Shown: one piece after another, positions 39,031 to 64,000 of the stretch
Position numbering within the stretch: the first letter of the stretch is position 1
How the letters are laid out: every line of letters begins with the position of its first letter
Assembly: GCA_964580055.1 (NCBI GenBank)
Contig: CAZOJI010000010.1
Coordinates: 4,367 to 68,366, forward strand
DNA: 64,000 nucleotides
Origin: an uncultured Gemmatimonadaceae bacterium
Lineage (GTDB): Bacteria; Gemmatimonadota; Gemmatimonadetes; Gemmatimonadales; GWC2-71-9
Reading direction: 5' to 3'
Notes under the pieces: model-generated
Told to the model about the DNA's origin: nothing
The model's database searches: none
What the model saw: only the letters and a program-made list of their open reading frames with translations
Position numbers and translations under genes: made by a program

Positions 39031-39049
39031 CCAGTATCCTCGGAACAGA

Positions 39050-39089
39050 CTAGAGTGTTTTTGAGTCGACGCTCAACTGTACACTCTAG
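39050..39089 (-). promoter_or_regulatory. Nested inverted repeat (9-bp outer and 5-bp inner arms) between the leader uORF and the EB_dh gene start
   Basis: CTAGAGTGT (39050-58) pairs with ACACTCTAG (39081-89). Inner arms are TTGAG (39061-65) and CTCAA (39072-76). Confidence 0.45.
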
Positions 39090-39112
39090 CCGGCGCAGCG
39101 GGAACCCTTCAT
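39086..39112 (-). promoter_or_regulatory. 8-codon leader uORF (MKGSRCAG*) with a strong SD, duplicating the first 4 codons of the EB_dh gene
   Basis: GGAGGAG lies 5 nt upstream of ATG 39112. The 15-nt direct repeat GGAACCCTTCATCCA (39019-33 and 39101-15) spans both start codons. The stop TAG lies inside the hairpin arm. Confidence 0.4.
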
Positions 39113-39208
39113 CCACTCCTCCGCTGACCTCCATACCTATTATGTTCTCTAGAGCAGAGGGATTCTAACCGCATCGCCTGATGGCTTTATTGTCAGGATC
39201 AAGGATGG

Positions 39209-41711: not shown

Positions 41712-42098
41712 CTATCTGTCTTTGAGAGCTTGCCACCGCTCCAGCACTCGCTGCAACTCGATCTCAAGTTCACCAATCGACTCCACGAGTTGAGATGTCA
41801 GCCCGATGTCGGTCGACTTCGAGACTCCGCCTTTCACGCAACTGATCTAGAAGACGTTGGTATGCTCGGGCACACCGGCTGCGGCCTTGCCTCGCCCTTC
41901 CCGTAATGGGCCGATCATGCGCCAGCGCATCCTCTGGAAAAGGTCTGCGTCGTACTGCTGTGCACCGGCGGGCGAAGTCTCGAATGCAAAGCGAACATGA
42001 ACAGGACAAACGTCAATGAATGTCGGAAAGACATGAATCCTTCCTGTCGGGATGTAAGAACGAGAAACGCAGCTTGTTGGCGCTCTGCTATCCCCCAA
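41712..42098 (-). pseudogene. Decayed N-terminal fragment of a sortilin/BNR (Asp-box) repeat glycosidase-like protein with an in-frame TAG
   Basis: 'QQYDADLFQRMRWRMIGPLREGRGKAAAGVPEHTNVF*ISCVKGGVSKSTDIGLTS' parallels the conserved N-terminus '...WR.IGP.RGGR..AVAGVP....VFY.G...GGVWKSTDGG.TW'. The frame ends 44 codons after the TAG. Confidence 0.45.
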
Positions 42099-43257: not shown

Positions 43258-43405
43258 GTTGTCTCCGGTTCGGCAGAAAAGGTTCTTTGGCTTAGCCATT
43301 ATGCACCCGGGAACGTCTCGGCGCGAGAGGGGGGGGGAGGTGATCACGTTAAATTGCCTTGACGGGGTAGGGCCGAAACTGATGGTTGCCGCCTGACGTT
43401 CGGAC

Positions 43406-43603
43406 GTGCCGGATGATTTCAGGATGCTCGTGCCGATCATGCTGGATTTTGGATCGGAAGGCAGCGCATGGGTGCGTATCGACGTCACCGGCCCGGAGAC
43501 GGAGATGGTGTTACCGATACTGCCAATGAGGCCGGACCGGATAGTGTTCAATCCTTTTGAGTCAGTTCTCGCTGACACGAAGACGGAGCGTTGGCGCGAC
43601 TAG
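43406..43603 (+). pseudogene. Possible C-terminal remnant of a peptidase-type beta-sandwich domain (65 codons)
   Basis: 'VPIMLDFGSEGSAWVRIDVTGPETEMVLPILPMRPDRIVFNPFESVLA' resembles the C-terminal '...v.v.g....f.....P..v.lDP..w.L' ending of M1-type aminopeptidase-like proteins. A stop lies 9 nt upstream of the GTG and there is no SD. Confidence 0.2.
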
Positions 43604-49081: not shown

Positions 49082-52000
49082 TCAGTCTGATGAAGCATTC
49101 CCGCAGCACCAGCCTACCGGGGCAAAGCCGCAGTAGCGGCATTCCAGCGGGTCTTCAGCCGCGGTATTTGCCTCTCCCTCGATGCGCCGTGCGATGCTGG
49201 ATACAGACTGCGCTGCGCGGCGCCGCAGCCGGTCGTCCACCGGCTGGGAAACCTGAACCTGTGCCCGCGAAAACTGAAAGGCGAACCGGCCGGCCCGCAT
49301 TCCGGCGATTCCCTCCACAGCGGTTATGTAGACGTCTTGTTGCGGTTCGTAGAGTTCGGCCTTGCGGCGCGCGACTTCTTCATTGCACTGCGGTGTCTTC
49401 ACATCCAACAGCGCGAGTCTGTTCGCTTCCACAGCCGCGAGGTCGATGCTGCCCTCGTAGTACTCGTCCTCGGCGGCAAGATACAGAAAAGCCAACTCCC
49501 TGCGAGAATCGGGCAGGTCGGCGATCGTCCGATAGCCGGGCTCGTTCGCTACCCGCTCGATCTCCTCTCGCAGATGCATCCGATAACGCTCCCCGCGCCG
49601 TGTACCGCTTCTCGGAGCGTCCTGGTCGCGCCTTTGGATCGCATCATCTAGTAACAGTTCCAGGTCGGATTCTTCTCGGAGTCGCTCCAGCACATCGTGC
49701 ACTATCAAACCCCGTGTCAGTGCGTCGATCAGAGACCCACGACGTCTCTCGGGGACGGTCGGCTCACGGATTCCAAGCGTGTATTTGAACCAATGACGAC
49801 GCGGACATGCCGAGAAGGTCAGATACTCCGTGGCGGAATGCCTCGTTGCACTGGCCGATACTGATACTGGGTCGACTATGGGAGGCAGGGTGTCCAACGC
49901 ACGGGGTGGTGGAGGTTCCAGAACGCTGGCGGCTGTTGCAGAGGGGGGAGCATCGACAACTCGCACAATACCATCTAACCGTTCGCCGGCCGCGTTCTCG
50001 TAGTGAAAGCGTCTGCCGTCAGTAGCAGCGACGTTCTTCAATCCCTGCAGGAGGAAATCGGCTGCTTGAGAGGATCCCTGCTTTCCAACCCGGGCAGCAG
50101 AGATGCCGCACAGAATCAACCGTTCGATTGCTCTGGTAGCAGCCACATACCAGAGCCGTTTTTCTTCTGCCATGCTCTCGAAGGCGAGTCGTGCTTGCAG
50201 CGATTCGTAGTTTTCAGGTTGACTGTCGGCCGCGGGATCTCGCAACGCGATCGTTTTGCTCCCGACGATCATCCTGCCGGAGTTCCTGGTATTCAGTGCC
50301 AAGCCCAGCCCACCCCAAAAGACGATCCTCCATTCCAGGCCTTTGGCACTGTGTACGGTGCTGATAGTCACGGCATCTCCACGAGGAGTGATGGGCTCGC
50401 CGTCGTCTCTGTTCGCTTCTCTGCAACGGTGGATATGTGCAACGAACTCACTGGTGCTGAGGCGCGAGGCCTTGCGGGATTGCCTCAGCAATCTCATTAC
50501 GTTGCGGAACGCCTCGTCCTCATCGTGTCCCAGAATTCGTAGGTGTGCCATGTAGCCAGTGTCATAAAGAAGGTCCTCCAGCAGTTCATGCACCGGCTTT
50601 CTGTCACGCATGGCGGCGTAGTGAGACAGCATTGCAGTGCCGGCTGCCATGCGCTCAGCTTCCGCCTCTGCCAGTGATTCCGGCATGAGTGAGCCATACT
50701 GATCGGATGAAGGGCGAACCATTTCCCACAGGCAACCGTCCGCGCTGGAGCGCAGCTGCAGTAGAGTCTCATCTGAAATGCCGACGAACGGGCTCCTGAG
50801 ATAACCCACCAGTGCCCGATCGTCAGATGGGTCGCACAGGGTCTCCAACGCCAGCAAGAGATCCAGTATCTCTCTTTTCTCGTAGAAGCCCGAGCTTCTG
50901 AGGGAAAATGCTGGCACTCCTACAGCTTCGAGAGCATCTCTGTAGTCTGGTGCCATGGACCAGTTTCTGAGCAGCACAGCCATCTCGCCCCACTCATAAC
51001 CCTCTTGGCTCAGCTCTACCGCTCTCTTGGCAACAGCTGTTACCTCCAGTCTCCGACGGTCCGAGCTACTGAGGTCTTTGCCCTTTTCGTTGGCCGGCAG
51101 CATGATCACTTCCACCGGCGGCCCCACGTCTTGCTCACTGGTGCCGGTGGATAGTGCCTCGAACGGCACTTCGAAATCCTGCAGCCCTCCTGGTTGGGTC
51201 GGAGTGTCGAATGCCCTGCCGATGGTTGAGTCCACGATGCCGAGTATCTGTTTGGAGCAGCGGTAGCTGTTGGTCGTGGAACGTACGAGCCCCCACCCTT
51301 TCTGCTCGAAATCTGTTCTTACTTCGTGCCAAACCCTCACGTCGGCGCGCCGGAAGCGGTAGATACTCTGCTTGGCGTCGCCAACCAGCATCAGGCGCGT
51401 TGTGTCCGAGCGACCCGACGCCGGGTCTCCGAGTAGATAAGCGATTTCCTTCTGCACGGGATCGACATCTTGGAACTCATCGATTATCAGAGTTTTGATG
51501 CGACGTCTCAGGGCGGATCGTATCTGATGATGTTCGGCGAGCAAATCTCGCGCTTGGACTATGACCCGATCGAAATCGATCAACTCCGAACTGGCAAGCT
51601 CCTCGTCTAGGGCGGCAGCGGCGAGCAACGCGACATCTAGTATCGCGCGCTCCGGGGTAGGCAGATTCTCGTTCGCGGCGATGCGACGCAGACGATCGGT
51701 ATTGCGCAACAGATCTTCCACCATTTCGCGAATCTGTCTCGCTGAGAAGCGTGACAGCACGGTTGCCAAACCTGGTACGCCCTTGCCTTCCAAAACCCTC
51801 AAGATCGTGTCGCGGGTCACCTGCGAACGGATCGATTCGAGAACCGGCTCGTCGACGACCTCGTCGCGGGGATTGGCTCCCGCTTGCAGTGCGAATTCAC
51901 GCAGCAAGTCTAGGCAGAATGAGTGAATTGTCCCTATCCGAGCCAGTTCTATCTCGTAAGCCTCGGCGGTACGGCTCATCGACAGCAGGGCCCGTCTCAG

Positions 52001-52267
52001 CTTTCGTTTGAGGTCGGCGGCCGCGGCATTCGTGAATGTGATTGCGCCGATGTCCTTGATGCCGCACTGCATTCTGCCAACGGTCTTTTCTGGGGCTCCC
52101 TCGGGCGGTTCCAGGTCGACGCCGAGCAAGAATAGAATCCGGCCCACGACGGTGCGCGTCTTCCCGGTTCCGGCGCCCGCCGAGACCAGGATATGCCGGT
52201 CGACCGCGACCACTGCATCCCACTGCTGGCGCGAGAATTGCCAATCCGTCGCATTCGGTGCGGTCAT
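49082..52267 (-). CDS. addA: AddA-like UvrD-family helicase / RecB-type nuclease subunit
   Basis: ATG 52267 forms an ATGA overlap with the addB stop. 'SAGAGTGKT' (Walker A). Nuclease motifs 'LLDVKT' and 'YEPQQDVYITAV'. C-terminal 'CRYCGFAPVGWC'. Confidence 0.8.
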   Translation of the reverse strand: MTAPNATDWQFSRQQWDAVVAVDRHILVSAGAGTGKTRTVVGRILFLLGVDLEPPEGAPEKTVGRMQCGIKDIGAITFTNAAAADLKRKLRRALLSMSRTAEAYEIELARIGTIHSFCLDLLREFALQAGANPRDEVVDEPVLESIRSQVTRDTILRVLEGKGVPGLATVLSRFSARQIREMVEDLLRNTDRLRRIAANENLPTPERAILDVALLAAAALDEELASSELIDFDRVIVQARDLLAEHHQIRSALRRRIKTLIIDEFQDVDPVQKEIAYLLGDPASGRSDTTRLMLVGDAKQSIYRFRRADVRVWHEVRTDFEQKGWGLVRSTTNSYRCSKQILGIVDSTIGRAFDTPTQPGGLQDFEVPFEALSTGTSEQDVGPPVEVIMLPANEKGKDLSSSDRRRLEVTAVAKRAVELSQEGYEWGEMAVLLRNWSMAPDYRDALEAVGVPAFSLRSSGFYEKREILDLLLALETLCDPSDDRALVGYLRSPFVGISDETLLQLRSSADGCLWEMVRPSSDQYGSLMPESLAEAEAERMAAGTAMLSHYAAMRDRKPVHELLEDLLYDTGYMAHLRILGHDEDEAFRNVMRLLRQSRKASRLSTSEFVAHIHRCREANRDDGEPITPRGDAVTISTVHSAKGLEWRIVFWGGLGLALNTRNSGRMIVGSKTIALRDPAADSQPENYESLQARLAFESMAEEKRLWYVAATRAIERLILCGISAARVGKQGSSQAADFLLQGLKNVAATDGRRFHYENAAGERLDGIVRVVDAPPSATAASVLEPPPPRALDTLPPIVDPVSVSASATRHSATEYLTFSACPRRHWFKYTLGIREPTVPERRRGSLIDALTRGLIVHDVLERLREESDLELLLDDAIQRRDQDAPRSGTRRGERYRMHLREEIERVANEPGYRTIADLPDSRRELAFLYLAAEDEYYEGSIDLAAVEANRLALLDVKTPQCNEEVARRKAELYEPQQDVYITAVEGIAGMRAGRFAFQFSRAQVQVSQPVDDRLRRRAAQSVSSIARRIEGEANTAAEDPLECRYCGFAPVGWCCGNASSD

Positions 52268-55200
52268 GTTCCAGCCTCTCTCACATGCGGCGGCACTCTG
52301 CACACGTCATAAGCGGGGCAATATGCTGGGCAGCCGCAGCTTGGGGCCGGTCGGACAGGGAACCTTCCCTTTCTGACACTGGAGACGTGTTTGCATACCA
52401 TGTTTAGCGCATTATCCATCTTCGCCATGTCATTTTCGTTTCGAACCAGATCGCCTGTCTTCTTGTCCACACCATACAGCTGCAGGCAGTGAGCGCGAGC
52501 TTTGCCGGGCGACGCGCCGGGTTTGGTCTCACCCAAGGGGCGGTATTCAACGCGGGAGACTTCGGCGTGGTCGGTTAGCTGAGTCAGAGCGTGAGCATAC
52601 AGGGGAACCTGGAGTACCACGCCTTCATCCCAGGCTACACTCCTGCCTTCACCCGGTACGCCACGAATGCTCGATTTGTAGTCGATAGCGGCGACAAATC
52701 GTGAAGCATCCTCGATTCGTGCGTCCACGCCTCGATCGACACGATCGATGATGCCGCGGTATCTGAAAACCACACCATGCCTCTCCAAAACGACGTCGCC
52801 GTCCTCGCCGAATCTCAACTCGTGGTAATCAGCTCCCGTTCGGAGGATAGCGGCATCGCTCTTCCTCACGTCCTCCATTCTGTCATGGTGTTCCACCTCC
52901 CATGCCAAATATCTCAGCAGATCGCGTTTGAGCTCAGACCTCTTGAACGGCCGTAGTGTCGGGTGTCCCAGCCATGTGAGCTGCTCCATGTCGTCGAACG
53001 CGGTGTCCAAAACATCATTCATCAGCGACTCAGCCCATTCGAGATCCGACGACCGGAGAAAGACGGGTCTTCCCCTTTCGTCACCGGCTCGGTCGTAAAA
53101 CCGCGCCAATGCGTCATGCAGCAAAGAGCCACGAACGGTGGCTTCCATCTCTTCGTCGGGTTCTTCGAGTTTCTGGAGTCGTAGCAGCCTGATGGAGAAG
53201 TATGCCCACGGGCATTTTGCGTAAGTCTCGATCTGGGAAGGGCTCCATAGTTTGTTGTCGTCAAACCGCTCGGAAAGGTGTGATAGGAGACCTCGGTCGA
53301 TGATGATTCCGGAGAACGGCGATTCGACACCGCGTACTCTGTCGTACTCGATCTGCGCGCCGTGAAAGGCCTGGTCTCTCGCCGCGGCTGTGGGGGCGAG
53401 CGGAGTATCTGGAGTGATTGCAGCGTACTCGTCAACCGGGACAGTTGTTGCGTCGGCGACCTCGATTAGCGCCTCAATGAAGGAGGATCTGATTGTTTCT
53501 GCGCCGCGGAGGTTGATTTTCGGGTAGCTGATCGTGAGCTGTCCGGCTCCTCCGACTACTGAGCGAAACAGCTCGCGTTCCCGGAGGTCCCAGTCAGCTC
53601 TGGTATCGAGGTGAATTCCGGCGTTGCGGAGGCGACTCCTTTCATCGTCATCCAGGATCGGGGACCGCGACGCTGGGTGAGGGAAGGATCCGGCCTCCAT
53701 GCCAACGAGGAACACGTAGTCGAATCCACGGTGGCTTGCCGCCAACGCCTCCATTACCTGGACTCCGCGAGGAGATTCAGTCCAGACTCCGATCTGCCCG
53801 TCCAACAGATCTCGAAATCGCTTCGAGAACTCGCTCACCGAAATGGCGGTATTCCTGACAGGATCCGTTACGCCGGCATCTCCCCAACGGGCAACCGCGG
53901 ATTTCCACTCACTAATAAGGCCGTTGAGCGCGTGCCAGCCGGCCAGATCTCGCTTCACAGACGCGTACTCGCCCTCCGGTGCATCATAAATCTTCGCTTC
54001 GAAATCGAACGGGTCCCGCTGCATGAAGTCCTCGAGCCATGCTACCCAATCGTACAGAGTCTGGCGGCGATCCAGGTCGCCGGCGTGGCCGCGGAATGCG
54101 TCGAACTCCTCTAGGGTCTTGGCCGCGCACGCACTTGTCGGGCGGCGCACCGAGCCCGAACCGACTTTATCTTCGGATTCAAGCGGGCCGTCGGGTTGCC
54201 GGCTGAGTTCGTATATGGCGGCTCTCCACGCAGACAACCCCCTTATCGCTCTCCTGAAACCGAGGAAATCAAAAACGTCTGAGTCGAACAGCGGGCCGAA
54301 GAACGGCGACCTTGCCAGGTCGACCAGTCTCTGCCGAGTCCAACCGTCGGAAGCGGCGGCCAGAAGGCTCGCGACGGCCTTGATCACCGGGATCTCGCTG
54401 CAGGATGTTCTGAGCCGTGCAGTCGCCGGAACGCCGAAGACCTTCAAAGCTCGGACGGCCAGATCCACGTGAGGGCGGCCGCTCCGGGCCACAATCGATA
54501 CGCGGTGCGGGGGCGTTCCAGCGTCTACCAGGCGCCGCACCCTTTTCGCGACCTCGCCCATCTCCCTCTCGGTGTTGGGTGCCTCGATGATCGAAAAGCT
54601 ACCACGCGGCCGGGAGTTACCGTTTGGCTCTTTTGTTCCGAAGATCGACCTCGCCCAGACGTTGTCTCGTTTCTCCAGGTAAGTGACGGCGGCTGGGGGC
54701 AGATCGTGCAGCTCGGAACTGGTATACTGGTGCGTAACGTAGATGCGCACACGATCGGTCGCGGATGAATCGACCAGAGACGTCAACAGCCTTCTCCACC
54801 CACCACGCAGATCTGACAGGCCGTACAGGCGAATTTCCCTGCGCCCGCCCAGTCGCTCTGACAGTGCCTCGGGATCCTTCGCTACCAGCCGTGCAATTGA
54901 AGCCAACTCGTCGCGGCCGTCCCGCACTCCCTCTCTGTCCAACGCCTCCAAATAGTCTGCGTAGATGCTCGCGAGCTCCGATTGCTTGCGTTTGGGAAAC
55001 GACCCTTGGACTCCAGCCGCCGCCGCAGCGGTGGCTGTCTTGAATTCCTCTGCGGTCGTGCCCTCCGATATCAACTCGCCAATAAACCGGTCGAGACTTT
55101 CGAGATAGTAGTCGAGTCTGCGCAGGCGTCCGAAGACTTCCCCCCCGACACCGCGGACGATGCTGCCCAGGAGTGCCAACCGTTCAACGTCTCCTAGGGG

Positions 55201-55575
55201 CGCCGCCGCCGGTTGACCCAGCCATAGAGGCAACTCATGAAAGATGCAAAGTGGCGGGTAGAACCATCCCTTGCATCCTTTCCGAGCGGCCAATCGAATG
55301 ACGTCGTCGCGCAATGCTCCCTGGCGCAGGGCCAGTAGGTATTGCGGTGTAGGGAATGGGTCGTCGGGTGTCGCGCTGAGTGGCTGGAGGAAACCGTCGG
55401 CGGCAGCTCCCAAGAGCAGCTTCACGTCGGCTGATACCATCAACTCGAGTTTTGGGGCAGTCACCAAGCCATCTCCAGCGATTCGGGAAACGGGCTGCCT
55501 CTTGTACGCGCAGCGGTCGACGGGGTTTTCCTGCTGTGATTGTCTAAATTCTATCCAACCCTCTGCGGTCTTCAA
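52264..55575 (-). CDS. addB: AddB-like PD-(D/E)XK nuclease subunit with an Fe-S ('iron staple') cysteines
   Basis: 'IDYKS', 'LQVPLYAHAL', 'YAKCPWAYF' and C-terminal 'CGCPAYCPAYDVC'. No intact Walker A seen. Start uncertain (55575 or ATG 55440). Confidence 0.75.
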   Translation of the reverse strand: MKTAEGWIEFRQSQQENPVDRCAYKRQPVSRIAGDGLVTAPKLELMVSADVKLLLGAAADGFLQPLSATPDDPFPTPQYLLALRQGALRDDVIRLAARKGCKGWFYPPLCIFHELPLWLGQPAAAPLGDVERLALLGSIVRGVGGEVFGRLRRLDYYLESLDRFIGELISEGTTAEEFKTATAAAAAGVQGSFPKRKQSELASIYADYLEALDREGVRDGRDELASIARLVAKDPEALSERLGGRREIRLYGLSDLRGGWRRLLTSLVDSSATDRVRIYVTHQYTSSELHDLPPAAVTYLEKRDNVWARSIFGTKEPNGNSRPRGSFSIIEAPNTEREMGEVAKRVRRLVDAGTPPHRVSIVARSGRPHVDLAVRALKVFGVPATARLRTSCSEIPVIKAVASLLAAASDGWTRQRLVDLARSPFFGPLFDSDVFDFLGFRRAIRGLSAWRAAIYELSRQPDGPLESEDKVGSGSVRRPTSACAAKTLEEFDAFRGHAGDLDRRQTLYDWVAWLEDFMQRDPFDFEAKIYDAPEGEYASVKRDLAGWHALNGLISEWKSAVARWGDAGVTDPVRNTAISVSEFSKRFRDLLDGQIGVWTESPRGVQVMEALAASHRGFDYVFLVGMEAGSFPHPASRSPILDDDERSRLRNAGIHLDTRADWDLRERELFRSVVGGAGQLTISYPKINLRGAETIRSSFIEALIEVADATTVPVDEYAAITPDTPLAPTAAARDQAFHGAQIEYDRVRGVESPFSGIIIDRGLLSHLSERFDDNKLWSPSQIETYAKCPWAYFSIRLLRLQKLEEPDEEMEATVRGSLLHDALARFYDRAGDERGRPVFLRSSDLEWAESLMNDVLDTAFDDMEQLTWLGHPTLRPFKRSELKRDLLRYLAWEVEHHDRMEDVRKSDAAILRTGADYHELRFGEDGDVVLERHGVVFRYRGIIDRVDRGVDARIEDASRFVAAIDYKSSIRGVPGEGRSVAWDEGVVLQVPLYAHALTQLTDHAEVSRVEYRPLGETKPGASPGKARAHCLQLYGVDKKTGDLVRNENDMAKMDNALNMVCKHVSSVRKGRFPVRPAPSCGCPAYCPAYDVCRVPPHVREAGT

Positions 55576-55638
55576 CAGCCTCGCTATCGAAGCACTGTCC
55601 GCGGCTCAATGATCCAAGGGCGCGAAAAGACTCCGGTT

Positions 55639-57327
55639 TTAGAAGCCCCGCGCGTACCTTCCCCATAGTTCGTTGCCCAGCTCCCACCACTTGGTCATTG
55701 TCGCGTGGGCGAAGTCATTGGTGTATTTGGTCAGGTAGTGTCTGAACTCATCGTATTGGCCGTTGTTGTAGTACTCCATGGCGATGTCTTCTATCGAAGG
55801 GAGTTCCATGAAGGCTCTGTCCTCGAACTCCATCGACGCGTCCTCGATCAGACTGCGCATCTCACCCCATTTTATCATCGCCAAACGATTGGTTCGCCTG
55901 AACCACCACACCGCAGCATCCTCGCGGTACCGATGCTGCCCGCATATCTGGAAACTGTTGGGAAGAGACAGCGTGCCGGCGAACACCGGAATGCGCGGGC
56001 TTTGGCCCGGATTGTCGAACGAGAACCACGCGACAGTTCCGAGTTCGGGCGGGAGCCAGTCTCGGTTCTGGATGATCTGAGAGTAGGAGCATCTGGCAAT
56101 GGCGATGGTCCGCTGTGGCTCGACCGTGCCTGGCTTCAAGGTGTTGAGGAGGTTCGCCATTTCCCCCCTCACGGTCCAGTTGTTCACCATCGGACTCTTG
56201 ACCACACCTTCTTGCTCTCCCGAATCCTCCTGGCCTCGGCCGCGTTGGGGCTCGACCAGGAGGTTCTTGGTCATGTCGTACTCGGTGCCTTCGTAGGTCT
56301 CGCGGTAGTACCGCATCACTTCCCTCACGGAGATCTTCCGGTCAGGCTTCACGGAGAACGGAAGCTCCTCGGCATCTCTGAGGAGATTCAATGACGGTGC
56401 CATCGTGCTGAGAATGAAGAACTCCCTTATGGAGAACGGCGCTCTGCCACTGTAGGCCTTCCAGAACTTGAATGGCTCTCCGCTCGACGGGTCCCACCAT
56501 CCCATCTCTTCCGCCAGAGAATACACGTTTTCAGATGCCATGTAATGGTCCGGATCGTCCAGATCCAGCTCGCCGATCCTTGGAATGTTGGCAGAAACGC
56601 CGACGTGGTCGTCCGGAATTCGCACGGCTGCCCAAACAGCTCCCAATTCGAACGGGCCGGCCCCTTGGATCTCGAAGTGCCAGACTTCCTTGGCATCAGC
56701 GAACGTGAGGCATTCGCCCCAATCTCCGTAACCGTATTCCGCGACCAACTCACCGATCAAGCGAATCGCGTCGCGCGCATTCGTCGTACGTTCCAGCGCG
56801 ATCGCCTGAAGGTTTTCGATCAGGAAGAGTCCTTCCGGGTTTCGGAGTTCATTCCTCCCTCCAATCGTCGTCTCCCCGATCGAAAGGCCCTTCTCGTTCA
56901 TCGCAGGATAGGCCACGTTGAAATAGGCGAAGGTGGAATCAGCCTGCGGTATCTCACCCTTGAGCCGCAGCCCCCTCATATCCCAGGGTGTTTCATTGTG
57001 CAGCTTGCCCCAGTAGATCGGTCTCGTGGAACTGGCGCCATGGTGTTCCGCAGGCTCGATGTTGAGCCAGGTCCGGTAGTTGCCGTCACACGTGTGAGAT
57101 GTGATTACTGAGCCATCGGTGCTGGCCTCTTTGCCGACCATGATGCTTGTGCATCCTCCGGTAGAGCCGTCGTTGCATGTTATGCACGTGTCCTGCGCCA
57201 CGGGTACTGGCACGGTGACGGCTGCGTCGGGTACCTGTGCTGTCGCAGACGCCCATCCTGTGACCAGCGAAAAGATGACCAGCAGCGCTAGTTCGACCGC
57301 GGTTCTGCAGAGGTGTCTCTCTTTCAC
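55639..57327 (-). CDS. C69 family dipeptidase (secreted)
   Basis: Signal peptide, then 'GGCTSIMVGKEASTDGSVITSHTCD', which is the N-terminal nucleophile Cys context typical of C69. Confidence 0.8.
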   Translation of the reverse strand: MKERHLCRTAVELALLVIFSLVTGWASATAQVPDAAVTVPVPVAQDTCITCNDGSTGGCTSIMVGKEASTDGSVITSHTCDGNYRTWLNIEPAEHHGASSTRPIYWGKLHNETPWDMRGLRLKGEIPQADSTFAYFNVAYPAMNEKGLSIGETTIGGRNELRNPEGLFLIENLQAIALERTTNARDAIRLIGELVAEYGYGDWGECLTFADAKEVWHFEIQGAGPFELGAVWAAVRIPDDHVGVSANIPRIGELDLDDPDHYMASENVYSLAEEMGWWDPSSGEPFKFWKAYSGRAPFSIREFFILSTMAPSLNLLRDAEELPFSVKPDRKISVREVMRYYRETYEGTEYDMTKNLLVEPQRGRGQEDSGEQEGVVKSPMVNNWTVRGEMANLLNTLKPGTVEPQRTIAIARCSYSQIIQNRDWLPPELGTVAWFSFDNPGQSPRIPVFAGTLSLPNSFQICGQHRYREDAAVWWFRRTNRLAMIKWGEMRSLIEDASMEFEDRAFMELPSIEDIAMEYYNNGQYDEFRHYLTKYTNDFAHATMTKWWELGNELWGRYARGF

Positions 57328-57391
57328 CTGACTACTCCTTATTGAGGCTGCTTCGTTGAGTGATCACCGACGGCGATGCACGCCCGGCGTT

Positions 57392-58564
57392 CTATTCGAT
57401 CACTACTCGTCGACTGCCTGCGTTCGACGGATCGTGCAAATAATGGCCGATGCCGTTCGCGATTATGTCTGCATATCTCGGGACGTTCAGGCAGGAGAGT
57501 GGTTTGTCGGGATTGAGATCGGTCCAGCTCTCCATCGTTTGAAGCACGGCTGATGTATGCCGGCCGACGCGCACCTCTATCGGCCATCCGTTCTCGTCGA
57601 TCTTCTCGTACAATAATCCGTGCTCGCCGGCCTTGACTACGAACTCGTCTTTGCCGGTCAGCAATTGCTCACGGGTGGTTCGTCCCCTGGTGGCATCCAG
57701 GAAAGGTTCAGGTGCTTCGAACAGCAATGACACGGCATCGGAGTAGTCGCCGACTTCACGATGGGAAAGCCCCCGGAGCGATTTGGGGGAGTACTCCATA
57801 CCCATTCCGAAACCCTCCATGTCGGATAGCATCATGGATACGAAGGCGGCGAGATCTTCGCCGCGATCGTGGGCGACGATGGTGCTGATCACCGGATACT
57901 GCAGTTCTGCTTCGTGCAAATCAATGAAGATGTCGACTTGCTCCCGTCTGATCAGTTCCATGAACGCGTAACAAGTGCGCTCTGTCAGTGTACCATTGGG
58001 ACGTCCGGGCCAACAGCGGTTCAGGTTCCGGATGTCCACCCACGCGAGGCTCTGCTTGCTCGGGTAGTGGATGTAGACTTCCGGGTCGGGCCACTGATCG
58101 AGAGGATTGGACCATCGGTCTCCCAAGCGAAACCTGCGTTCCCCCCAATCCGTCGGTATGCTGAAATCCGGAGGATACGCCCCGCCCAATCTGGTCGCGG
58201 TGCTGGCGCTGCGGTTGGAACTGAGCACCAGGATCAATCTGCCGCGCTCCATGACCGCGTTTTCCGCGAACAACCATGCGGCCAGACGGCCCGCCGGCTC
58301 CTCTGGATGTGAGCCTCCCATGGCGAAGATGGTGCCACCCTCTTCTTCTCCATCGAAAATGTATACGTTGCAGTCGTTTACCGTACCACGGACGCCGTGG
58401 TAGTAGTCGCTCAGCCGTTTGACCTCGGTGACTCCTTCGCTGAGAACGACCGGTTCTTCGAGGTGCCTGCTACGATAGAAGCTCGTGCCCGAGGAGACGA
58501 GCCACGCCAGTCCCACGGAGCAAATCGCGAGCTTTCGGAGCTTAGCGTGTGAATCGGCCGTCAT
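57392..58564 (-). CDS. Succinylglutamate desuccinylase/aspartoacylase-like (M14-related) zinc hydrolase
   Basis: 'GGSHPEEPAG' (HxxE) and 'IFIDLHEA' (distal His/Glu). N-terminal anchor or signal 'LAICSVGLAWLVSSG'. GGGGAG SD overlaps the stop of the small ORF upstream. Confidence 0.6.
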   Translation of the reverse strand: MTADSHAKLRKLAICSVGLAWLVSSGTSFYRSRHLEEPVVLSEGVTEVKRLSDYYHGVRGTVNDCNVYIFDGEEEGGTIFAMGGSHPEEPAGRLAAWLFAENAVMERGRLILVLSSNRSASTATRLGGAYPPDFSIPTDWGERRFRLGDRWSNPLDQWPDPEVYIHYPSKQSLAWVDIRNLNRCWPGRPNGTLTERTCYAFMELIRREQVDIFIDLHEAELQYPVISTIVAHDRGEDLAAFVSMMLSDMEGFGMGMEYSPKSLRGLSHREVGDYSDAVSLLFEAPEPFLDATRGRTTREQLLTGKDEFVVKAGEHGLLYEKIDENGWPIEVRVGRHTSAVLQTMESWTDLNPDKPLSCLNVPRYADIIANGIGHYLHDPSNAGSRRVVIE

Positions 58565-58576
58565 CTCAAATCTCCC

Positions 58577-58741
58577 CTATTTCAATCTGAGTAGACGCAG
58601 GAGGAACGGTAGCAGCACGACGGCGTACTGGACTTCTTTCTCCCAGCTCTTGGTGCGGATCAAGTTGCGAATCATGATAAATACTATGAACGCCACGAGG
58701 ACATAATAGATGGCTGCGACTATTCCACCGAGCAGTATCAT
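58577..58741 (-). CDS. Unlisted 54-aa two-TM membrane protein (MILLGGIVAAIYYVLVAFIVFIMIRNLIRTKSWEKEVQYAVVLLPFLLRLLRLK)
   Basis: Below the 60-aa ORF-track cutoff. AGGAGG lies 6 nt upstream of ATG 58741 and overlaps the stop of the permease gene. Its own stop lies in the SD of the next gene. Confidence 0.6.
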   Translation of the reverse strand: MILLGGIVAAIYYVLVAFIVFIMIRNLIRTKSWEKEVQYAVVLLPFLLRLLRLK

Positions 58742-58751
58742 TGCGAGCCTC

Positions 58752-60044
58752 CTAGAGACCGGTCAGGAAGCTGAGTTTTTTCGAATAGACGACCATCAGT
58801 GTTCCAACAACCATGATGATGATCGCCGGTACTATGCAGGCCTTCAGAAACCTGCCATAGCTTTCCTTGCAACCGAGCACGCTAACGGTCAGGCGACCGA
58901 TGATCGCGGTTGGCGGCAGTCCATCGCCCAGCGGCCAGATGACCGTCATGCCGGCCAGGGCCACGATGGGATCCAACCCCATGTTCTCGAACAGCAGTAC
59001 GAGTGGCACGCCTATCACGGGCCCCGATCCGTACATTAGTATGGCATCGGATACGGGCATCAGCCAGAACAGGCTGGCGAACACAACGAAGGCTGGCAAC
59101 GTCACGGCGGTGACGGCAAGCAGCCCTCGCACCCCGGTCAGCGTCATTATTTGCACCAATATGCCAACGCTGGTCAATGTCGCTATCAAGGGCAGTAGCT
59201 GGTCTATCGTGTCCTCTGAGATTCTCAAAATGTTCAGTTTTACGGGCGACAGGACGAACGACGTCGCTGCCGCGAACAGGAACATAAGTGGCAGTCCCAG
59301 AATCGGTGTGGAGTGTGGCCACAGCCTCCCGACGAGGATCAGCGCTCCAAAGACGACAAACGGCAGAAAAACCTTGAGCCAGTTCATCTGCGCCGGGGGC
59401 TCGGGGAGCTCTTCGAGCGCCTTCTCGATGTCCGGCTCGCTTCCCTTCCAACCGACAATGAAGATCGTGAGCAGTGAAATCAGGACACAAGGTATCAGCA
59501 GCGGCCAGAAGAAACCCACATAGGGCATGTTTACGCCCGCCGCGGTCATCATTGCCCATAGATTTACGGGAGGCGCGGCCGCTGCCATGCCGGCTATGAT
59601 GAACACGATGACCGCCGTCTTGAGCTTGGGGATACCCATGTAGTAGAGGACAACCGCTACCATGCCGCCGGTGATCAAGACGGTGACGCTACCAGCGCCA
59701 GTCAACGCTCCCGGGAGCATCAGTAGCACTGTCAGCAGGACGAGGAGCAACGCCCTATTTCTATAAAACCGCTTCAGAATGCCTCTTACAGAGAAGGCAA
59801 CGGCTCCCGACTCCTTCATGATATTCATGAAGAACGTTGCAGTGACGAATATCAGGTTGATGTCGAGGTAGGTTATGGCGCCTTCGGCGTAATGACGAGC
59901 CGGGAATCCGAAGCCACCCGCCAGCCCGCCGGCCATGGCGGCCGAGAGCATCGCCAGTTCGGTGGACAGTTTGAGCCCTTTGACTATGACGTAGACTACC
60001 ACCATCACGCCGAGCACTATCCCGGCCGAGGCGAACATGCTCAC
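58752..60044 (-). CDS. DctM-like (TRAP large-subunit family) permease without DctQ/DctP partners
   Basis: 430-aa polytopic protein. 'FFMNIMKESGA...LPGALTGAGSVTVLITGGMVAVVLYYMGIP...AGMAAAAPPVN' parallels the DctM pattern 'FF.l.g..m..sG...F.aiSGSs.At.a..G.i..P.M...G....a.g.lG.iiPPS'. Confidence 0.55.
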   Translation of the reverse strand: MSMFASAGIVLGVMVVVYVIVKGLKLSTELAMLSAAMAGGLAGGFGFPARHYAEGAITYLDINLIFVTATFFMNIMKESGAVAFSVRGILKRFYRNRALLLVLLTVLLMLPGALTGAGSVTVLITGGMVAVVLYYMGIPKLKTAVIVFIIAGMAAAAPPVNLWAMMTAAGVNMPYVGFFWPLLIPCVLISLLTIFIVGWKGSEPDIEKALEELPEPPAQMNWLKVFLPFVVFGALILVGRLWPHSTPILGLPLMFLFAAATSFVLSPVKLNILRISEDTIDQLLPLIATLTSVGILVQIMTLTGVRGLLAVTAVTLPAFVVFASLFWLMPVSDAILMYGSGPVIGVPLVLLFENMGLDPIVALAGMTVIWPLGDGLPPTAIIGRLTVSVLGCKESYGRFLKACIVPAIIIMVVGTLMVVYSKKLSFLTGL

Positions 60045-60056
60045 AACTGTGTGCTC

Positions 60057-60662
60057 CTATGCGCCGAAGATCTCGGGCAACACATTGCTCAGATCGGTGA
60101 GTTTTTCGAACAGGACGATTGGAATACCGGCTTCATTGGCGATCGCGCTGAACCTGCCGTCCTCGTTGCCCTCCTCCATCACGAGCAGCATGTCGGCGAA
60201 GGGACAGACGGCATCGATGGATAGTTCATCGGTGTTGTCGCCTTGTGCGGCTCCTTGTGCACGCCTTTCCATCCCTTCGATATGCGCCCCTATGATCGTC
60301 ATACCAAGGCTTCGTGCTTGTGCGATCAGCCTTTCCGCCCGAGCCAGCTCATCCTCGATGGATATGCCGGCGGCGCCCATGCCCTTACCGCTAGCACCCG
60401 TTACGATGATGATTGACTTGAACGGTCCCGCCTCTTCATGCCCAGCAGCAAGATCCTCGACGGTGGACAGGCTCTTGAATACGAAATCGTAGCCGAGCCT
60501 GTTCATGAATACTCTGAAGTAGACTGGACCGGGACTCTGACCGATCGAGGTAACCAAAACCGGCAGGTCGGCAGTCTCCTGCGCGTGAATCGGCGTTTTG
60601 ACAACTGCACAGAGGGAGACTGCCAGTGCTGCACCGAGCACCACCATACGTACACGTCTCAT
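60057..60662 (-). CDS. Secreted ~200-aa hypothetical protein (possible binding partner of the adjacent permease)
   Basis: ATG 60662 lies 6 nt after GGAG. Signal peptide 'VVLGAALAVSLCAVVKTPIHAQ'. Rossmann-like alternation ('LPVLVTSIGQSPG', 'IIIVTGASGKGMG'). 12 nt upstream of the permease. No family confidently recognised. Confidence 0.5.
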   Translation of the reverse strand: MRRVRMVVLGAALAVSLCAVVKTPIHAQETADLPVLVTSIGQSPGPVYFRVFMNRLGYDFVFKSLSTVEDLAAGHEEAGPFKSIIIVTGASGKGMGAAGISIEDELARAERLIAQARSLGMTIIGAHIEGMERRAQGAAQGDNTDELSIDAVCPFADMLLVMEEGNEDGRFSAIANEAGIPIVLFEKLTDLSNVLPEIFGA

Positions 60663-60825
60663 GTGGCTCTCCTGCGATCGAGAAACCAGGATTGGGAAGG
60701 ACGCGGGTATGATATCCGATGTTTGACTGCCGATCAACCGGCGCAGGTTCCGGCGGTCCCCAAAGTCGCGGCGCCGGCGAGTACCGTGCCGGGCGAGCGC
60801 ACACTGCGCGAGCTACAGCGACCTG

Positions 60826-61971
60826 CTAGATCGATTCACCGGGTGCTCGCGGACTCCGGCGTGCTGCCGACCTCGAGTACCGGGTAACCAGGACCCCTAC
60901 TGCTAGCAGGAAAGGAATACCGATAAGCCAGACGCTGAAATGGCCGTCGGACCCGCTGTAGTGCAGCGGCATTTCGCCGGGTTCCTTCAACGGTATCGGG
61001 TCCCAGGTGATCCCGTATTCGAGTGTGAGGCCTCTGATGAAGAGCAGATGGATGACCGGAACATCTCGTGCAGCCATTTCGTGGAGCACTCCGCGCTGTT
61101 GGACGGGAGGCAGTGCTACTTCGACGTTGAGGCCTGGATCGAGATCTAGTGCCAGCGGGCTGGGGCCGAGGTTCGCGTGGCTTCCGCCCGCGTTGATGAA
61201 GGCGGTGACGGGGTTTTTTGGGGGAGTGGCTCCGTATTCTGCCATGCGTAGGGCGACATTCCTGCGCAAGTCGGGTTCGTAGATGAACTGGATGCCGCTC
61301 GCAGCGATCCGACCGAGGAGCTGTTCCCTCAGATGCGGATCGAACCCGCCGCCGACGTCACCTCTGCCCCCCAACGAGACGCCGGCCGGCGGTGTTGCTA
61401 CCACGCCTTCTCGCAGCAGCAAGGTGTAGATGTCGAGGAGGTTGAACTGCGGATTGGTTGCTCCGTACGAGGACGCTCCCAGCGAGATCAATGCCACTGC
61501 GTGCAGGTCCATTGCCTGAGCCGCAGCCAAGGTCGCTATCAGCAGCGCGGGGAACGACGCGGAGCTTCCGACAGCTATCGTATCACCCGGAGCGACGCCG
61601 ATCCGGTCAAGCATGTGGACGATGATGCTCGCCATCGCGGGGTCGGCAGTGGTTCTCTTCGCGTCGAGATGGCCGAGCGTTGTCATCAACTCAGAGTATT
61701 CGGGGCCGATCAGGCAGGTGCGGTTGGGGTCGATTGTCTCATCGATTTCGATGCCTGTCGAGTCGCAGAATGCACGGGTGGTCTCGGTTGCCCCCTGCAT
61801 GATTACGGCCGCATCAAGCATCTCTTCGCTGTAGCGCAGAGCCCCGGTTGGAGAGACCAGGCGCAATGAGAACAAAGCGAGCAGGCTCACGATCCCCGCT
61901 GCGACGATCGGAAATGGCGAACCCGACCCAACCGCGGAGCGTCGGGAGAGCGTAAACGGCGAACACCTCAT
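60826..61971 (-). CDS. Putative 'poly-gamma-glutamate system protein' (family found beside pgsB/pgsC in some non-Bacillus genomes)
   Basis: ATG 61971 forms an ATGA overlap with the pgsC stop. N- and C-terminal TM anchors flank a ~300-aa exposed domain. The family call is from memory of the synteny and needs an HMM check. Confidence 0.5.
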   Translation of the reverse strand: MRCSPFTLSRRSAVGSGSPFPIVAAGIVSLLALFSLRLVSPTGALRYSEEMLDAAVIMQGATETTRAFCDSTGIEIDETIDPNRTCLIGPEYSELMTTLGHLDAKRTTADPAMASIIVHMLDRIGVAPGDTIAVGSSASFPALLIATLAAAQAMDLHAVALISLGASSYGATNPQFNLLDIYTLLLREGVVATPPAGVSLGGRGDVGGGFDPHLREQLLGRIAASGIQFIYEPDLRRNVALRMAEYGATPPKNPVTAFINAGGSHANLGPSPLALDLDPGLNVEVALPPVQQRGVLHEMAARDVPVIHLLFIRGLTLEYGITWDPIPLKEPGEMPLHYSGSDGHFSVWLIGIPFLLAVGVLVTRYSRSAARRSPRAPGESI

Positions 61972-62399
61972 AACCCGAGAAGTCGTCCGATAAAATGCAA
62001 GGTCACTGTGACTGTGACGAGTGATGCCAGCGTGAGAGTGACTCCCTGGCGGTCGCAGTGATTGGCAATGAGCCCCGGTATGACCCAACCGAGTACCCTG
62101 AACTCGAGAGACAGCGGGAAGAGTGACGGGAATACGCGCAGCCAGAGCAGTGCCCAAACGCCTCCGGTCAATATCAGGAACACGAACCGTCTTTTCCCAA
62201 AGAGGATCAAATAGCGCGAAGTCATCTTGTAAACAAGCAGCGTGAGCATGGCTGCGATGAGCGTTCCAGCTATCCGAGCCGGTTCACTCATGAACAATAC
62301 CAGGTAGCTGGGGACAATGATCCCACCGGGATATAAGCCTGTGATCCCTGTATAGAGCAGGGACAGCAGCAATCCCGCGAACGCAATCTCATACCCCAT
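61968..62399 (-). CDS. pgsC: Poly-gamma-glutamate biosynthesis membrane protein PgsC/CapC
   Basis: The internal ATG at 62399 gives a 143-aa 4-TM protein. 'GGIIVPSYLVLF', 'LFGKRRF', 'GWVIPGLIANHCDRQG' parallel B. subtilis PgsC ('GLVVPGYLAL', 'LYGRRKF', 'GIIVPGLIANTIQKQG'). Confidence 0.85.
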   Translation of the reverse strand: MGYEIAFAGLLLSLLYTGITGLYPGGIIVPSYLVLFMSEPARIAGTLIAAMLTLLVYKMTSRYLILFGKRRFVFLILTGGVWALLWLRVFPSLFPLSLEFRVLGWVIPGLIANHCDRQGVTLTLASLVTVTVTLHFIGRLLGL

Positions 62400-63564
62400 A
62401 CACGACTCCTGCAGCGTCCCAGTGTTGCGTGAGCCTTTGTCCCAAACCAACGAAGTTGCCGAAGCCGAACACTACCGTGTTGTCTTCGACTTCAGTCACT
62501 ATGGATGCCGTTATGCGCTCGGCCGACCTCCGGCCGACGAACTGCGCCGACTCCAGACTCCGTGCCGCTGCCATGGCGTGACCACCGGCCACGTACACCC
62601 TGCGAAATCGTCCCGGCCGGCCGCTTCGGATAGCGTCGATCCACTGTCTGGTCCTATCGCCACGGTCGGGGCGCAGGCAGAGCAAGCCCACGAACTCCTG
62701 TGAGGTTGCTTTGAAAGCACTTGCTACCCGTTGAAACACTCGCTCGGTAGACACTGGATCGTTCGCTGCGAAGGCGTCAACGAAGTAAACCGTTTTTCCC
62801 GATTCGCCGCTCCGTATCTCCCGTACCGAGAATGCCCCCGGGTATCCCGCAGTGGAAGCCAACTCGGCTTCGATGACCTCGTCGCTCATGCCGAGCTCGA
62901 TGGCGACCGCACAGACGAGGTCGAGGTTGTCGGCAAACTCGCTTGCGGCCAAATCGGGGTTCCGGCTCAGTATAGATGCAGAGCGGTTCTCATCGACCAA
63001 AACCATTCTTCCCCCAGCGTTGAGCACCGCTTGCTCGAATGGCCTGGGCCGGCAGTTCCGCGTCAAGAAAACCGTGGCTCCCCGAACGACGTCGAGGCTC
63101 AAGGTGGCCGCGACATCGTCTTCCGTTTCACCCTGGGCATCGGTGTGATCGGGCCATGTGTTGGTGACCGCTACGACGTCGGGTTTGAGTAGTTGCCGCG
63201 CTTCAGCTATGTGGTTTTCGGCGTGGATGCTCATGACTTCCGCGACCAGGCAATCCACCTCTAGTGAGGCTGCTAGCTCGAGCAGGCCCTTCTGCTCCAA
63301 TACAGAAGCCTGTCCCCGTCGCCGGATTTCTGTTTGCGAGCCGTCCGGCCAGAGGAGAGTCGGCTGTGACCCCGTCGTCTTGGCGAGGACTCTTCGCCCA
63401 TCCGACCTTAGAACAGAGGCCAGCAATCGCGCAGTGGTAGATTTACCTCTGGTTCCAGTTACTATGACTGTCTGTGGAATTTGCTTGCGCCAACGGTCGA
63501 CCGATTTGCGCTCGTGGATCAGGTAGAGCACGAACGCCGTCACGGACAAGATCAGCACGGTCAT
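62389..63564 (-). CDS. pgsB: Poly-gamma-glutamate synthase PgsB/CapB (Mur-ligase-like amide ligase)
   Basis: ATG 63564 follows AAGGGAG. N-terminal TM segment, then 'VIVTGTRGKSTTARL' (P-loop), 'AKTTGS', 'AEVMSIHAENH', 'VTNTWPDHTD'. Confidence 0.85.
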   Translation of the reverse strand: MTVLILSVTAFVLYLIHERKSVDRWRKQIPQTVIVTGTRGKSTTARLLASVLRSDGRRVLAKTTGSQPTLLWPDGSQTEIRRRGQASVLEQKGLLELAASLEVDCLVAEVMSIHAENHIAEARQLLKPDVVAVTNTWPDHTDAQGETEDDVAATLSLDVVRGATVFLTRNCRPRPFEQAVLNAGGRMVLVDENRSASILSRNPDLAASEFADNLDLVCAVAIELGMSDEVIEAELASTAGYPGAFSVREIRSGESGKTVYFVDAFAANDPVSTERVFQRVASAFKATSQEFVGLLCLRPDRGDRTRQWIDAIRSGRPGRFRRVYVAGGHAMAAARSLESAQFVGRRSAERITASIVTEVEDNTVVFGFGNFVGLGQRLTQHWDAAGVVYGV

Positions 63565-63692
63565 TGGACTCCCTTTGCATGATTCGTCTGTCGAATCGGC
63601 CGGCGACCGAAGTTGGCTGCCGGAGTAAAACATATTGGTGTGAGAATAATAGGACAGAGAATGAGCATTGGTGACCTTTATGGTCGTTTCAT

Positions 63693-64000
63693 ATGACAGC
63701 CTCTAACGCGACCGGTTACACGCGAGGGGTGCAGACCCTCTTGGGAGACCCCAAGAAGGCGATCATCAAGCTCTCAATACCGATGGTTGTCGCGGTGGCT
63801 GCGCACACCTTCTACAACCTCACGGATGCCGTTTGGGTGTCAGGATTGGGGCCGGAGTCTCTTGCTGCTGTGGGTTTCATCTTCCCTTTCTTGTTTTTCG
63901 CAATGGCGATAGCAAGTGGGGTGGGTATCGGTGGTGGGGCTGCAATATCCAGGAAGATCGGTGCTAGAGACAAAACCGGCGCCGACAGCATTGCGGTCCA
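63693..64000 (+). CDS. MATE family transporter, 3' end cut by window edge
   Basis: 'LLGDPKKAIIKLSIPMVVAVAAHTFYNLTDAVWVSGLGPESLAAVG...ISRKIGARD'. Confidence 0.8.
   Translation, partial: MTASNATGYTRGVQTLLGDPKKAIIKLSIPMVVAVAAHTFYNLTDAVWVSGLGPESLAAVGFIFPFLFFAMAIASGVGIGGGAAISRKIGARDKTGADSIAV

Follow-up and report, generated by a model that had tools for sequence, protein, structure and literature searches.

Our understanding of poly-gamma-glutamate biology has been built almost entirely on Bacillus. Polyglutamate operons carry an enzyme that degrades the polymer, encoded by capD in B. anthracis and by pgdS beside pgsBCAE in B. subtilis (PMC3815933 and established knowledge). A pgsB/pgsC-type three-gene set also occurs in a Gram-negative bacterium, Francisella tularensis, where the capA gene of capBCA is annotated as 'poly-gamma-glutamate system protein' (PMC5362203). 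We have identified a conserved gene cluster in which a synthase set of this type is joined to a hydrolase, a permease and further proteins. The cluster lies in a 64,000-nucleotide stretch (the window) of contig CAZOJI010000010.1 from an uncultured Gemmatimonadaceae bacterium, where it comprises eight consecutive minus-strand genes at positions 55639-63564. On the reading that we favor, by a little better than even chances, the cluster couples a gamma-glutamyl polymer synthase to extracytoplasmic hydrolysis and glutamate re-uptake.

All overlaps and spacers of the cluster were verified base by base, and the gene order, overlaps and Shine-Dalgarno (SD) spacers described in an earlier reading of these letters alone (the sequence-only reading) matched at every junction on the minus strand. 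A MatE gene on the plus strand is transcribed divergently upstream of pgsB, and the gene string therefore begins at pgsB (62389-63564), which encodes a PgsB-like amide ligase of 391 aa from an SD-preceded ATG; its open reading frame (ORF) can be extended to an alternative start at 63633. An 11-nt overlap leads into pgsC/capC (61968-62399; membrane subunit of 143 aa), and an ATGA overlap joins pgsC to the gene for a 381-aa protein of the TIGR04332 'poly-gamma-glutamate system protein' family (60826-61971). After a 163-nt gap follow the four genes referred to here as the module, which encode a secreted DUF6305 protein (60057-60662; 201 aa), a polytopic permease (58752-60044; 430 aa; 12-nt spacer), a 54-aa membrane peptide with two hydrophobic segments (58577-58741; 10-nt spacer with TAGGAGG) and a membrane-anchored zinc hydrolase (57392-58564; 390 aa; 12-nt spacer with GGGGAG). 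The last gene encodes a secreted C69 peptidase, an N-terminal nucleophile (Ntn) cysteine hydrolase (55639-57327; 562 aa; 64-nt spacer with AAGGAG).

As in B. subtilis pgsBCAE-pgdS and B. anthracis capBCADE, the genes for the PgsB-like ligase and the PgsC-like subunit overlap, a third membrane-anchored protein with an extracytoplasmic domain is present, and polymer-cleaving enzymes would be encoded in or beside the operon, the Bacillus ones being PgdS or CapD, an Ntn hydrolase of the gamma-glutamyltransferase (GGT) type. Unlike the Bacillus systems, the window locus has neither a metallophosphatase-like PgsA of the PGA_cap family nor a recognizable PgsE; its third subunit is a TIGR04332 protein with two transmembrane helices and no detectable similarity to PgsA; its candidate cleaving enzymes are an AstE/AspA-type zinc hydrolase and a C69 peptidase rather than an NlpC/P60 enzyme or a GGT; and the permease, the mini-peptide and DUF6305 are added, in hosts that are mainly diderm and belong to uncultured phyla. 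The Francisella set shares with the window locus the three genes of pgsB/pgsC type and a Gram-negative host; the membership of its CapA in TIGR04332 rests on annotation only, and no hydrolase or permease module has been reported there.

At least seven bacterial lineages, which are known almost exclusively from metagenomes, share the eight-gene cluster. A scan of one genome per species returned 182 relatives, of which the best 80 were examined for gene neighborhood; these were metagenome-assembled or single-cell genomes labeled Gemmatimonadota, KSB1, Acidobacteriota, Bacteroidota, Ignavibacteriaceae and Deferribacteres. The whole comparison set comprised 175 related loci, including 80 species-level genomes and 80 metagenome contigs, and extended to more distant versions from organisms of lower or higher G+C content. 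Three permease homologues on long contigs were accompanied by the same eight genes in different surroundings, and this recurrence of the same order in other genomic contexts places the arrangement far beyond chance. Wherever the contig allowed the order to be read, the genes for DUF6305, permease, mini-peptide and hydrolase adjoined one another in this order on a single strand. Immediately upstream of the module, pgs genes were present on the same strand in 55 of the 71 determinable species genomes (Gemmatimonadota 24/24, Bacteroidota 16/19, Acidobacteriota 5/15) and, when TIGR04332 was taken as the starting point, the module adjoined it in 60 of 67 informative metagenome loci. Identity to the window proteins across phyla was 67-83% for the permease and 61-86% for the hydrolase, compared with 48-80% for PgsC, 40-62% for TIGR04332 and 30-53% for PgsB. 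The values for permease and hydrolase exceed what vertical descent would lead one to expect and thus point to very strong constraint or to horizontal spread of a cassette. Clustering of all flanking ORFs in 168 loci revealed no ninth conserved gene. Two neighbors were seen in some of the loci: an alanine racemase family gene (confirmed by Pfam), which could supply D-amino acids, just downstream of the module in five loci (e.g., L146:5586-6833, minus strand), and, directly upstream of pgsB in seven Bacteroidales loci (e.g., L058:5720-6334, plus strand), a gene for a 204-aa protein with a weak transglutaminase-like match, which may be an additional operon member peculiar to this lineage.

The gene identities, the co-inheritance and the fusions described below are established; membrane topology, substrate, transport direction and the polymer as such are inferred. 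PgsB would act as a cytoplasmic ATP-dependent amide ligase and would form, with PgsC and TIGR04332, a membrane synthase by which a gamma-glutamyl polymer is made and passed outward, with TIGR04332 holding the place of the Bacillus PgsA and its alpha/beta domain lying outside the cytoplasm between two transmembrane helices. The four-gene module and the secreted Ntn hydrolases (C69 here, GGT in distant versions) would cut the polymer or its fragments, and the permease with its partner of about 54 aa would import the released glutamate or short gamma-glutamyl peptides. Possessing both a synthase and a unit for hydrolysis and uptake, the cell would thus make, trim and reclaim its own polyglutamate. 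The degradative side of this reading is supported by the fact that known polyglutamate operons also carry a depolymerase, and by the GGT genes that adjoin distant modules.

The synthase genes were examined by hidden Markov model (HMM) searches. PgsC scored 112 bits against TIGR04011 (cut-off 96.5) and 113 bits against Pfam CapC (PF14102; cut-off 27), which confirms the name given to it in the sequence-only reading, whereas PgsB, also named there, reached 220.6 bits against the TIGR04012 equivalog (cut-off 222.7) over model positions 2-378 of 380 and so stopped just short. PgsB does have the Mur-ligase P-loop GTRGKST, a Mur_ligase_M domain and an N-terminal hydrophobic anchor. The assignment of the 381-aa protein in that reading to the 'poly-gamma-glutamate system protein' family was borne out by 291 bits against TIGR04332 (cut-off 100), and the protein stands beside pgsB/pgsC in related loci. 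In its AlphaFold2 model (predicted local distance difference test score, pLDDT, 83) transmembrane helices 20-39 and 341-370 flank an alpha/beta domain that is probably periplasmic. A profile of the family gave no credible match to sequences in the PDB, the best template-modeling (TM) score in a Foldseek search of the model against the PDB was only about 0.2, and neither a PGA_cap signal nor a PgsA-like fold was detected in the protein by HMM or Foldseek. A direct comparison found the TIGR04332 and DUF6305 families to be unrelated to each other. With no PgsA-like similarity detected, TIGR04332 could substitute for PgsA in position and topology at most; the suggestion that it replaces PgsA finds no counterpart in sequence or fold. 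The absence of PgsA/CapA noted from the letters was upheld, as neither PGA_cap nor GGT was found among the approximately 45 larger ORFs scanned in the window, and neither PgsA nor GGT was recurrent among the neighbors in the 168 related loci. A Pfam scan of about 40 other window ORFs gave no glutamate racemase.

These properties also bear on a different product. It is conceivable, if unlikely, that PgsB, PgsC and TIGR04332 do not give rise to free polyglutamate but extend some other acceptor by short gamma-glutamyl chains, or yield a small product that stays bound to the envelope. Maturation or sizing of this product would then fall to the hydrolases, and the permease would deal with a precursor or by-product. 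The divergence of PgsB, which lies below its equivalog cut-off and is 30-53% identical among relatives, would agree with this, as would the absence of detectable PgsA similarity in TIGR04332 and the diderm hosts, which would seem to have no obvious outer-membrane route for a long polyanion. Francisella capBCA, the sole studied locus with a capA annotated under the TIGR04332 family name, is needed for virulence but has not been linked to a polyglutamate capsule, and capsule production was found not to involve capB and capC (PMC4688374); such a reading draws on this locus as well. PgsC and the architecture of PgsB nonetheless match polyglutamate synthases well, GGT and carboxypeptidase-type partners fit the breakdown of a polymer or oligomer, and no candidate acceptor-related gene was recurrent in the neighborhoods.

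The hydrolase of the module is probably a divergent member of the AstE/AspA (M14-like) superfamily. It scored 24.0 bits against AstE_AspA_cat (PF24827; cut-off 25), while its relatives P0369, P0424 and P0372 reached 34-44 bits, and its profile retrieved from the PDB only AstE/AspA structures (Mlr6093, DoeB and others; E about 5e-5). The alignment to these structures covers the segment from NLNR to DLH, and the HxxE segment weakly. Invariant in 20 hydrolases are H86-x-x-E89, NLNR..PGR..G.LTE, D215-L-H217-E218 and several more His, Arg and Glu residues, and the predicted zinc triad (H86, E89, H217) and NLNR..PGR align with DoeB and Mlr6093; the AstE/AspA-like hydrolase with an HxxE...DLH site that had been recognized from the letters was in this way corroborated. 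The enzyme shares the HxxE...H zinc site and the NLNR carboxylate-binding motif with the AstE/AspA deacylases (DoeB, succinylglutamate desuccinylase, aspartoacylase), and the HxxE...H site also with the M14-fold phage enzyme PghP, but it differs from AstE/AspA enzymes in that similarity extends over part of the catalytic domain (E about 5e-5), in an N-terminal hydrophobic anchor and in a conserved insertion of about 45 residues. Acidic amino-acid amides are the substrates of enzymes with this fold, some of which attack gamma-glutamyl bonds. The parallel with PghP that had been drawn earlier failed at the level of sequence: the PghP model PF05908 gave no match, and a Pfam scan of the hydrolase at E<=10 returned AstE_AspA_cat only. 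A second M14/AstE_AspA-like hydrolase is encoded elsewhere in the window (2618-3577, plus strand; 319 aa), where its gene overlaps by 10 nt that of a membrane protein with a 'Gate' (nucleoside recognition) domain (3568-4800, plus strand; 410 aa) and forms another hydrolase-membrane protein pair.

The permease, with about 10 hydrophobic segments at the hydropathy threshold used, had no Pfam or NCBIfam match even at E=10, and its profile found no PDB sequence and no solved tripartite ATP-independent periplasmic (TRAP) transporter structure at E<=1. Homologues carry inconsistent names at their source (CitMHS, TRAP large subunit, 'C4-dicarboxylate ABC transporter'), and a few have a weak DcuC match. 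The permease of locus L170, which is 27% identical to that of the window (E 2e-30), has a full-length match of 60 bits to Pfam DctM (PF06808). The relation of the window permease to DctM is therefore distant and transitive, and the label 'DctM-like' given to it earlier holds in this sense and not as a direct match. The permease profile was not significant against the GntP permease of the window, with which a hairpin-like GxxTGxxxV motif aligned. We regard the permease as a member of a distinct and very conserved family distantly related to DctM.

The DUF6305 protein (148 bits against PF19823; cut-off 25) has a signal peptide, as does the C69 protein. Its alignment contains the invariant motifs TS(C)GQSPGP, VTGASxKGMGAAG, H127, RR133-134 and GDNxDExSID, and so many invariant polar residues would suit an enzyme or a ligand-binding site. 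AlphaFold2 modeled the protein (pLDDT 84) as one alpha/beta domain of three layers, for which Foldseek gave generic matches only (flavodoxin/SGNH-like, GDSL, SIS and CheY-like folds; TM-score about 0.36), and the profile had no credible match to PDB sequences and none to a binding protein. In one relative DUF6305 is fused to the hydrolase, and it may therefore serve the hydrolase rather than the permease.

The 54-aa ORF is a real gene: of the 80 loci examined, 78 have a mini-peptide of about 50-57 aa at the same place, as do divergent paralogous modules, with the pattern ..YY.L.A......LI.NLIK...W.KE.LY..VL.PFLLRLFRLK and the C-terminal end ...VLxPFLLRLxRLK. When tested as PgsE/CapE it gave no family match, a test weakened by the shortness and variability of PgsE. 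The candidacy of the peptide as a PgsE analogue was dropped, because it stays with the permease where the pgs genes are absent. The same evidence bears on a reading that we hold to be very improbable, in which the permease, the 54-aa peptide and DUF6305 serve synthesis or export, doing the work of PgsA and PgsE in translocation or complex assembly, rather than uptake. PgsA and PgsE are indeed missing at the locus, all the genes are co-inherited, and PgsE, which has a stimulating effect on synthesis, is also a membrane peptide of some 55 aa (PMC3815933); but the mini-peptide accompanies permease and hydrolase in modules without nearby pgs genes, the relatives of the permease match small-anion carrier families (DctM, CitMHS, NhaC) and not polymer exporters, and in position and topology TIGR04332 makes the better substitute for PgsA.

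A carrier for uptake invites comparison with TRAP (DctPQM) and tripartite tricarboxylate (TTT; TctCBA) transporters. As in these, a DctM-related carrier, a small membrane subunit and a secreted protein are encoded together and always co-inherited. Unlike the TRAP systems, the window permease has no DctM model match, and the small subunit is of about 54 aa with two hydrophobic segments where DctQ has four helices; unlike both, DUF6305 is a single alpha/beta domain rather than a two-lobed binding protein, and a membrane-anchored hydrolase is an obligatory fourth member. The proposal in the sequence-only reading that the secreted protein and the 54-aa peptide had been recruited as substitutes for DctP and DctQ thus stands insofar as both are constant companions of the permease, and does not fit in the fold of DUF6305. 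It is tempting to go further and to regard the module as a new multi-part secondary transporter, composed of a DctM-related carrier, a replacement of about 54 aa for DctQ, and a tethered zinc hydrolase and DUF6305 in place of the binding protein, with hydrolytic capture at the mouth of the carrier and coupling to PgsBC-TIGR04332 for a reclaimable gamma-glutamyl polyanion; we put this forward tentatively and regard it as doubtful.

GGT is a known type of polyglutamate-degrading and anchoring enzyme, and the C69 family is known for alpha-dipeptidase activity. The C69 peptidase of the window scored 193 bits against PF03577 and 178 bits against NF033678, under the cut-off of 250 for the latter; its domain begins at CTSIMVG (residue 59) with the conserved Cys that the family has at the domain start. 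C69 was present in 52 of 71 determinable species loci, with variable position and copy number. Distant versions of the cluster have GGT in place of C69, with GGT directly upstream of the module in L170, L172 and L173 and that of L170 confirmed at 305 bits, a pattern suggesting that the role of GGT/CapD can be taken by C69 peptidases.

At least four gene orders link module and synthase. In five loci (L094, L102, L144, L149, L156) a paralogous module lies between pgsC and TIGR04332 with C69 before it, its proteins being 32-37% (DUF6305), 46-51% (permease) and 45-47% (hydrolase) identical to those of the window, and in L096 one module lies on either side of TIGR04332. An exhaustive search with the hydrolase gave 627 clusters (50% identity), of which 129 had E<=1e-30, and a second domain of the cluster was present in 3 of the best 150 hydrolase relatives. 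In P0372, TIGR04332 (267 bits) is followed by a transmembrane segment, a short basic loop, a second transmembrane segment and the hydrolase (AstE_AspA_cat 34.6 bits); a linker of this kind would place both domains on the same, outer side of the membrane, and the hydrolase would therefore face outward. In P0425 the hydrolase is followed by DUF6305 (61 bits). The third, P0464, an apparent fusion of hydrolase and C69, looks like a frame-shifted gene call and was counted as adjacency only.

The corresponding loci show the same parts in other arrangements. L169 has the order permease, mini-peptide, hydrolase, C69, C69, pgsB, pgsC and the TIGR04332-hydrolase fusion, and L175 has this order unfused, with an 11-nt overlap between the TIGR04332 and hydrolase genes. 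L170 reads GGT, permease, mini-peptide, the hydrolase-DUF6305 fusion and a second AstE/AspA hydrolase; L173 reads GGT, permease, mini-peptide, hydrolase and DUF6305; and L172 reads GGT, GGT, DUF6305, permease, mini-peptide, hydrolase, second hydrolase, pgsB, pgsC and TIGR04332. The second, shorter AstE/AspA hydrolase (299-329 aa) follows right after the long one (L170:5381-6370, L172:8538-9437) and has a lipoprotein-like signal in L170. Co-location of module and synthase persists to about 30% identity. The link between the synthase and the downstream genes, which had first been drawn from a single locus, holds in this neighborhood comparison across gene orders, fusions and GGT variants.

In 16 of the 71 species genomes the module had no same-strand pgs genes within 4 kb upstream, and some of these stand-alone modules, in Acidobacteriota, have as neighbors S8 and M28 peptidases as well as sensor kinases of the hybrid two-component system (HTCS) type. 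The module can therefore act without an adjacent synthase. The hybrid sensors that follow Acidobacteriota stand-alone modules (L028:6155-9805, L051:6683-10765) contain Reg_prop/Y_Y_Y, HisKA and receiver domains and belong to the type by which Bacteroidota control uptake loci that are substrate-inducible. It is because of these neighbors that a general scavenging role is kept alive, although we rate it as quite unlikely: the four genes would take up acidic peptides or N-acyl amino acids from the environment and feed glutamate to the cell, the synthase included, and would not recycle the cell's own polymer. Scavenging would agree with the abundance of secreted peptidases in the window and in related loci, with the deacylation of N-acyl amino acids that is characteristic of AstE/AspA enzymes, with the known dipeptidase activity of C69 enzymes and with the module's own promoter-like element. 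Such a role accounts poorly for the insertion of the module within the pgs string in some lineages, for TIGR04332 being fused or translationally coupled to a hydrolase paralogue, and for a co-location held down to about 30% identity.

The promoter-like element lies inside the 163-nt gap, where a consensus scan found a sigma-70-like candidate, TTGATC-17-TATCAT (60709-60737, minus strand). The number of promoter-like consensus matches in the region was not above chance; both hexamers of the candidate and the leader of about 45 nt to AGGAG were, however, invariant in five related loci, with the rest of the gap unalignable, and a block of about 75 nt (60663-60740, minus strand) reaching to the DUF6305 start codon was almost invariant among related Gemmatimonadota loci (L005, L012, L089, L092). 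The module thus may be transcribed on its own, probably from this promoter, which fits the existence of stand-alone modules and does not weaken the comparative link to the synthase. A GATATC palindrome over the -10 hexamer may indicate a promoter with an operator. In the divergent intergenic region between the MatE gene and pgsB (63565-63692, minus strand), a block CCAATG...GTCCTAT(C/T)(T/A)TTC kept in five related loci is the probable synthase promoter. No terminator-like site was found in any intergenic gap of the cluster, scan totals again not being above chance, and Rfam gave no riboswitch or other RNA in 55400-64000. The element before DUF6305 weakens the view of the whole string as one combined operon.

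Against a synthase coupled to hydrolysis and glutamate re-uptake weigh a number of these observations. None of the TIGR04332-type systems examined has a detected product, and all hosts of the cluster are uncultured. The PgsB score is 2 bits under its equivalog cut-off, capsule production in Francisella was found not to involve capB and capC, the hydrolase has no similarity to PghP, and the known dipeptidase activity of C69 is of the alpha type. The conserved promoter-like element divides the synthase genes from the module, which in the 16 genomes lacks its synthase neighbors and in some of them adjoins other peptidases and hybrid sensor kinases. Finally, the P0372 and P0425 fusions were each seen on a single contig and are possible sequencing artefacts; the adjacency that they imply stands apart from this risk, because the same genes are unfused neighbors in L175 and L173.

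Outside the cluster the window is peptidase-rich, with two more M14 carboxypeptidases (876 and 565 aa), an S9 prolyl oligopeptidase and two beta-lactamase-fold proteins; the peptidase-type genes, at 11-919, 4859-6970, 9594-12224, 12244-13677 and 29281-30978, suggest a peptide-degrading lifestyle. Directly downstream of the C69 gene is an AddAB-like helicase-nuclease pair (49082-55575, minus strand; 1073 and 1103 aa, both with PD-(D/E)XK), which is not kept beside the cluster in other genomes. The gene at 42088-43578 (minus strand) encodes a protein of 496 aa in which three RidA/L-PSP domains stand in tandem, which is an uncommon arrangement. A redox cluster at 34445-41701 encodes a cytochrome c protein, two cupredoxin-domain proteins, one of them with a 4Fe-4S domain, whose ORFs overlap at 36379-37147, an EB_dh heme-domain protein and an 830-aa multiheme-plus-TPR protein, and may specify a respiratory complex.

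A search of the available literature found nothing on DUF6305, on the TIGR04332 family name, on pgs genes in these phyla or on a module of this kind, and found no structural paper on PgsBCAE; the supposition that an operon of this composition is uncharacterized agrees with this. The synthase core is already known and TIGR04332 is a named but unstudied family; what is new is the fixed association of four genes for hydrolase and permease functions, the alternation of C69 and GGT, and the fusions. The cluster points to a second, widespread form of polyglutamate system, with TIGR04332 as third subunit and tied to hydrolases and a permease, and no fewer than 182 species-level genomes, from Gemmatimonadota, Bacteroidota, Acidobacteriota, KSB1, Ignavibacteria and other groups, have it. 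It provides a testable gamma-glutamyl context for four families that have no function assigned to them, namely TIGR04332, DUF6305, the permease with its mini-peptide, and the divergent AstE/AspA hydrolase, and may be a source of new enzymes with which a polymer of industrial use is made and cut. It would also bear on polyanion storage or shielding in sediment and soil bacteria. If the module were the multi-part transporter tentatively put forward above, its coupling to the synthase would give diderm bacteria a gamma-glutamyl polyanion of their own making, kept at the surface or in the periplasm, from which glutamate and charge could be rapidly reclaimed.

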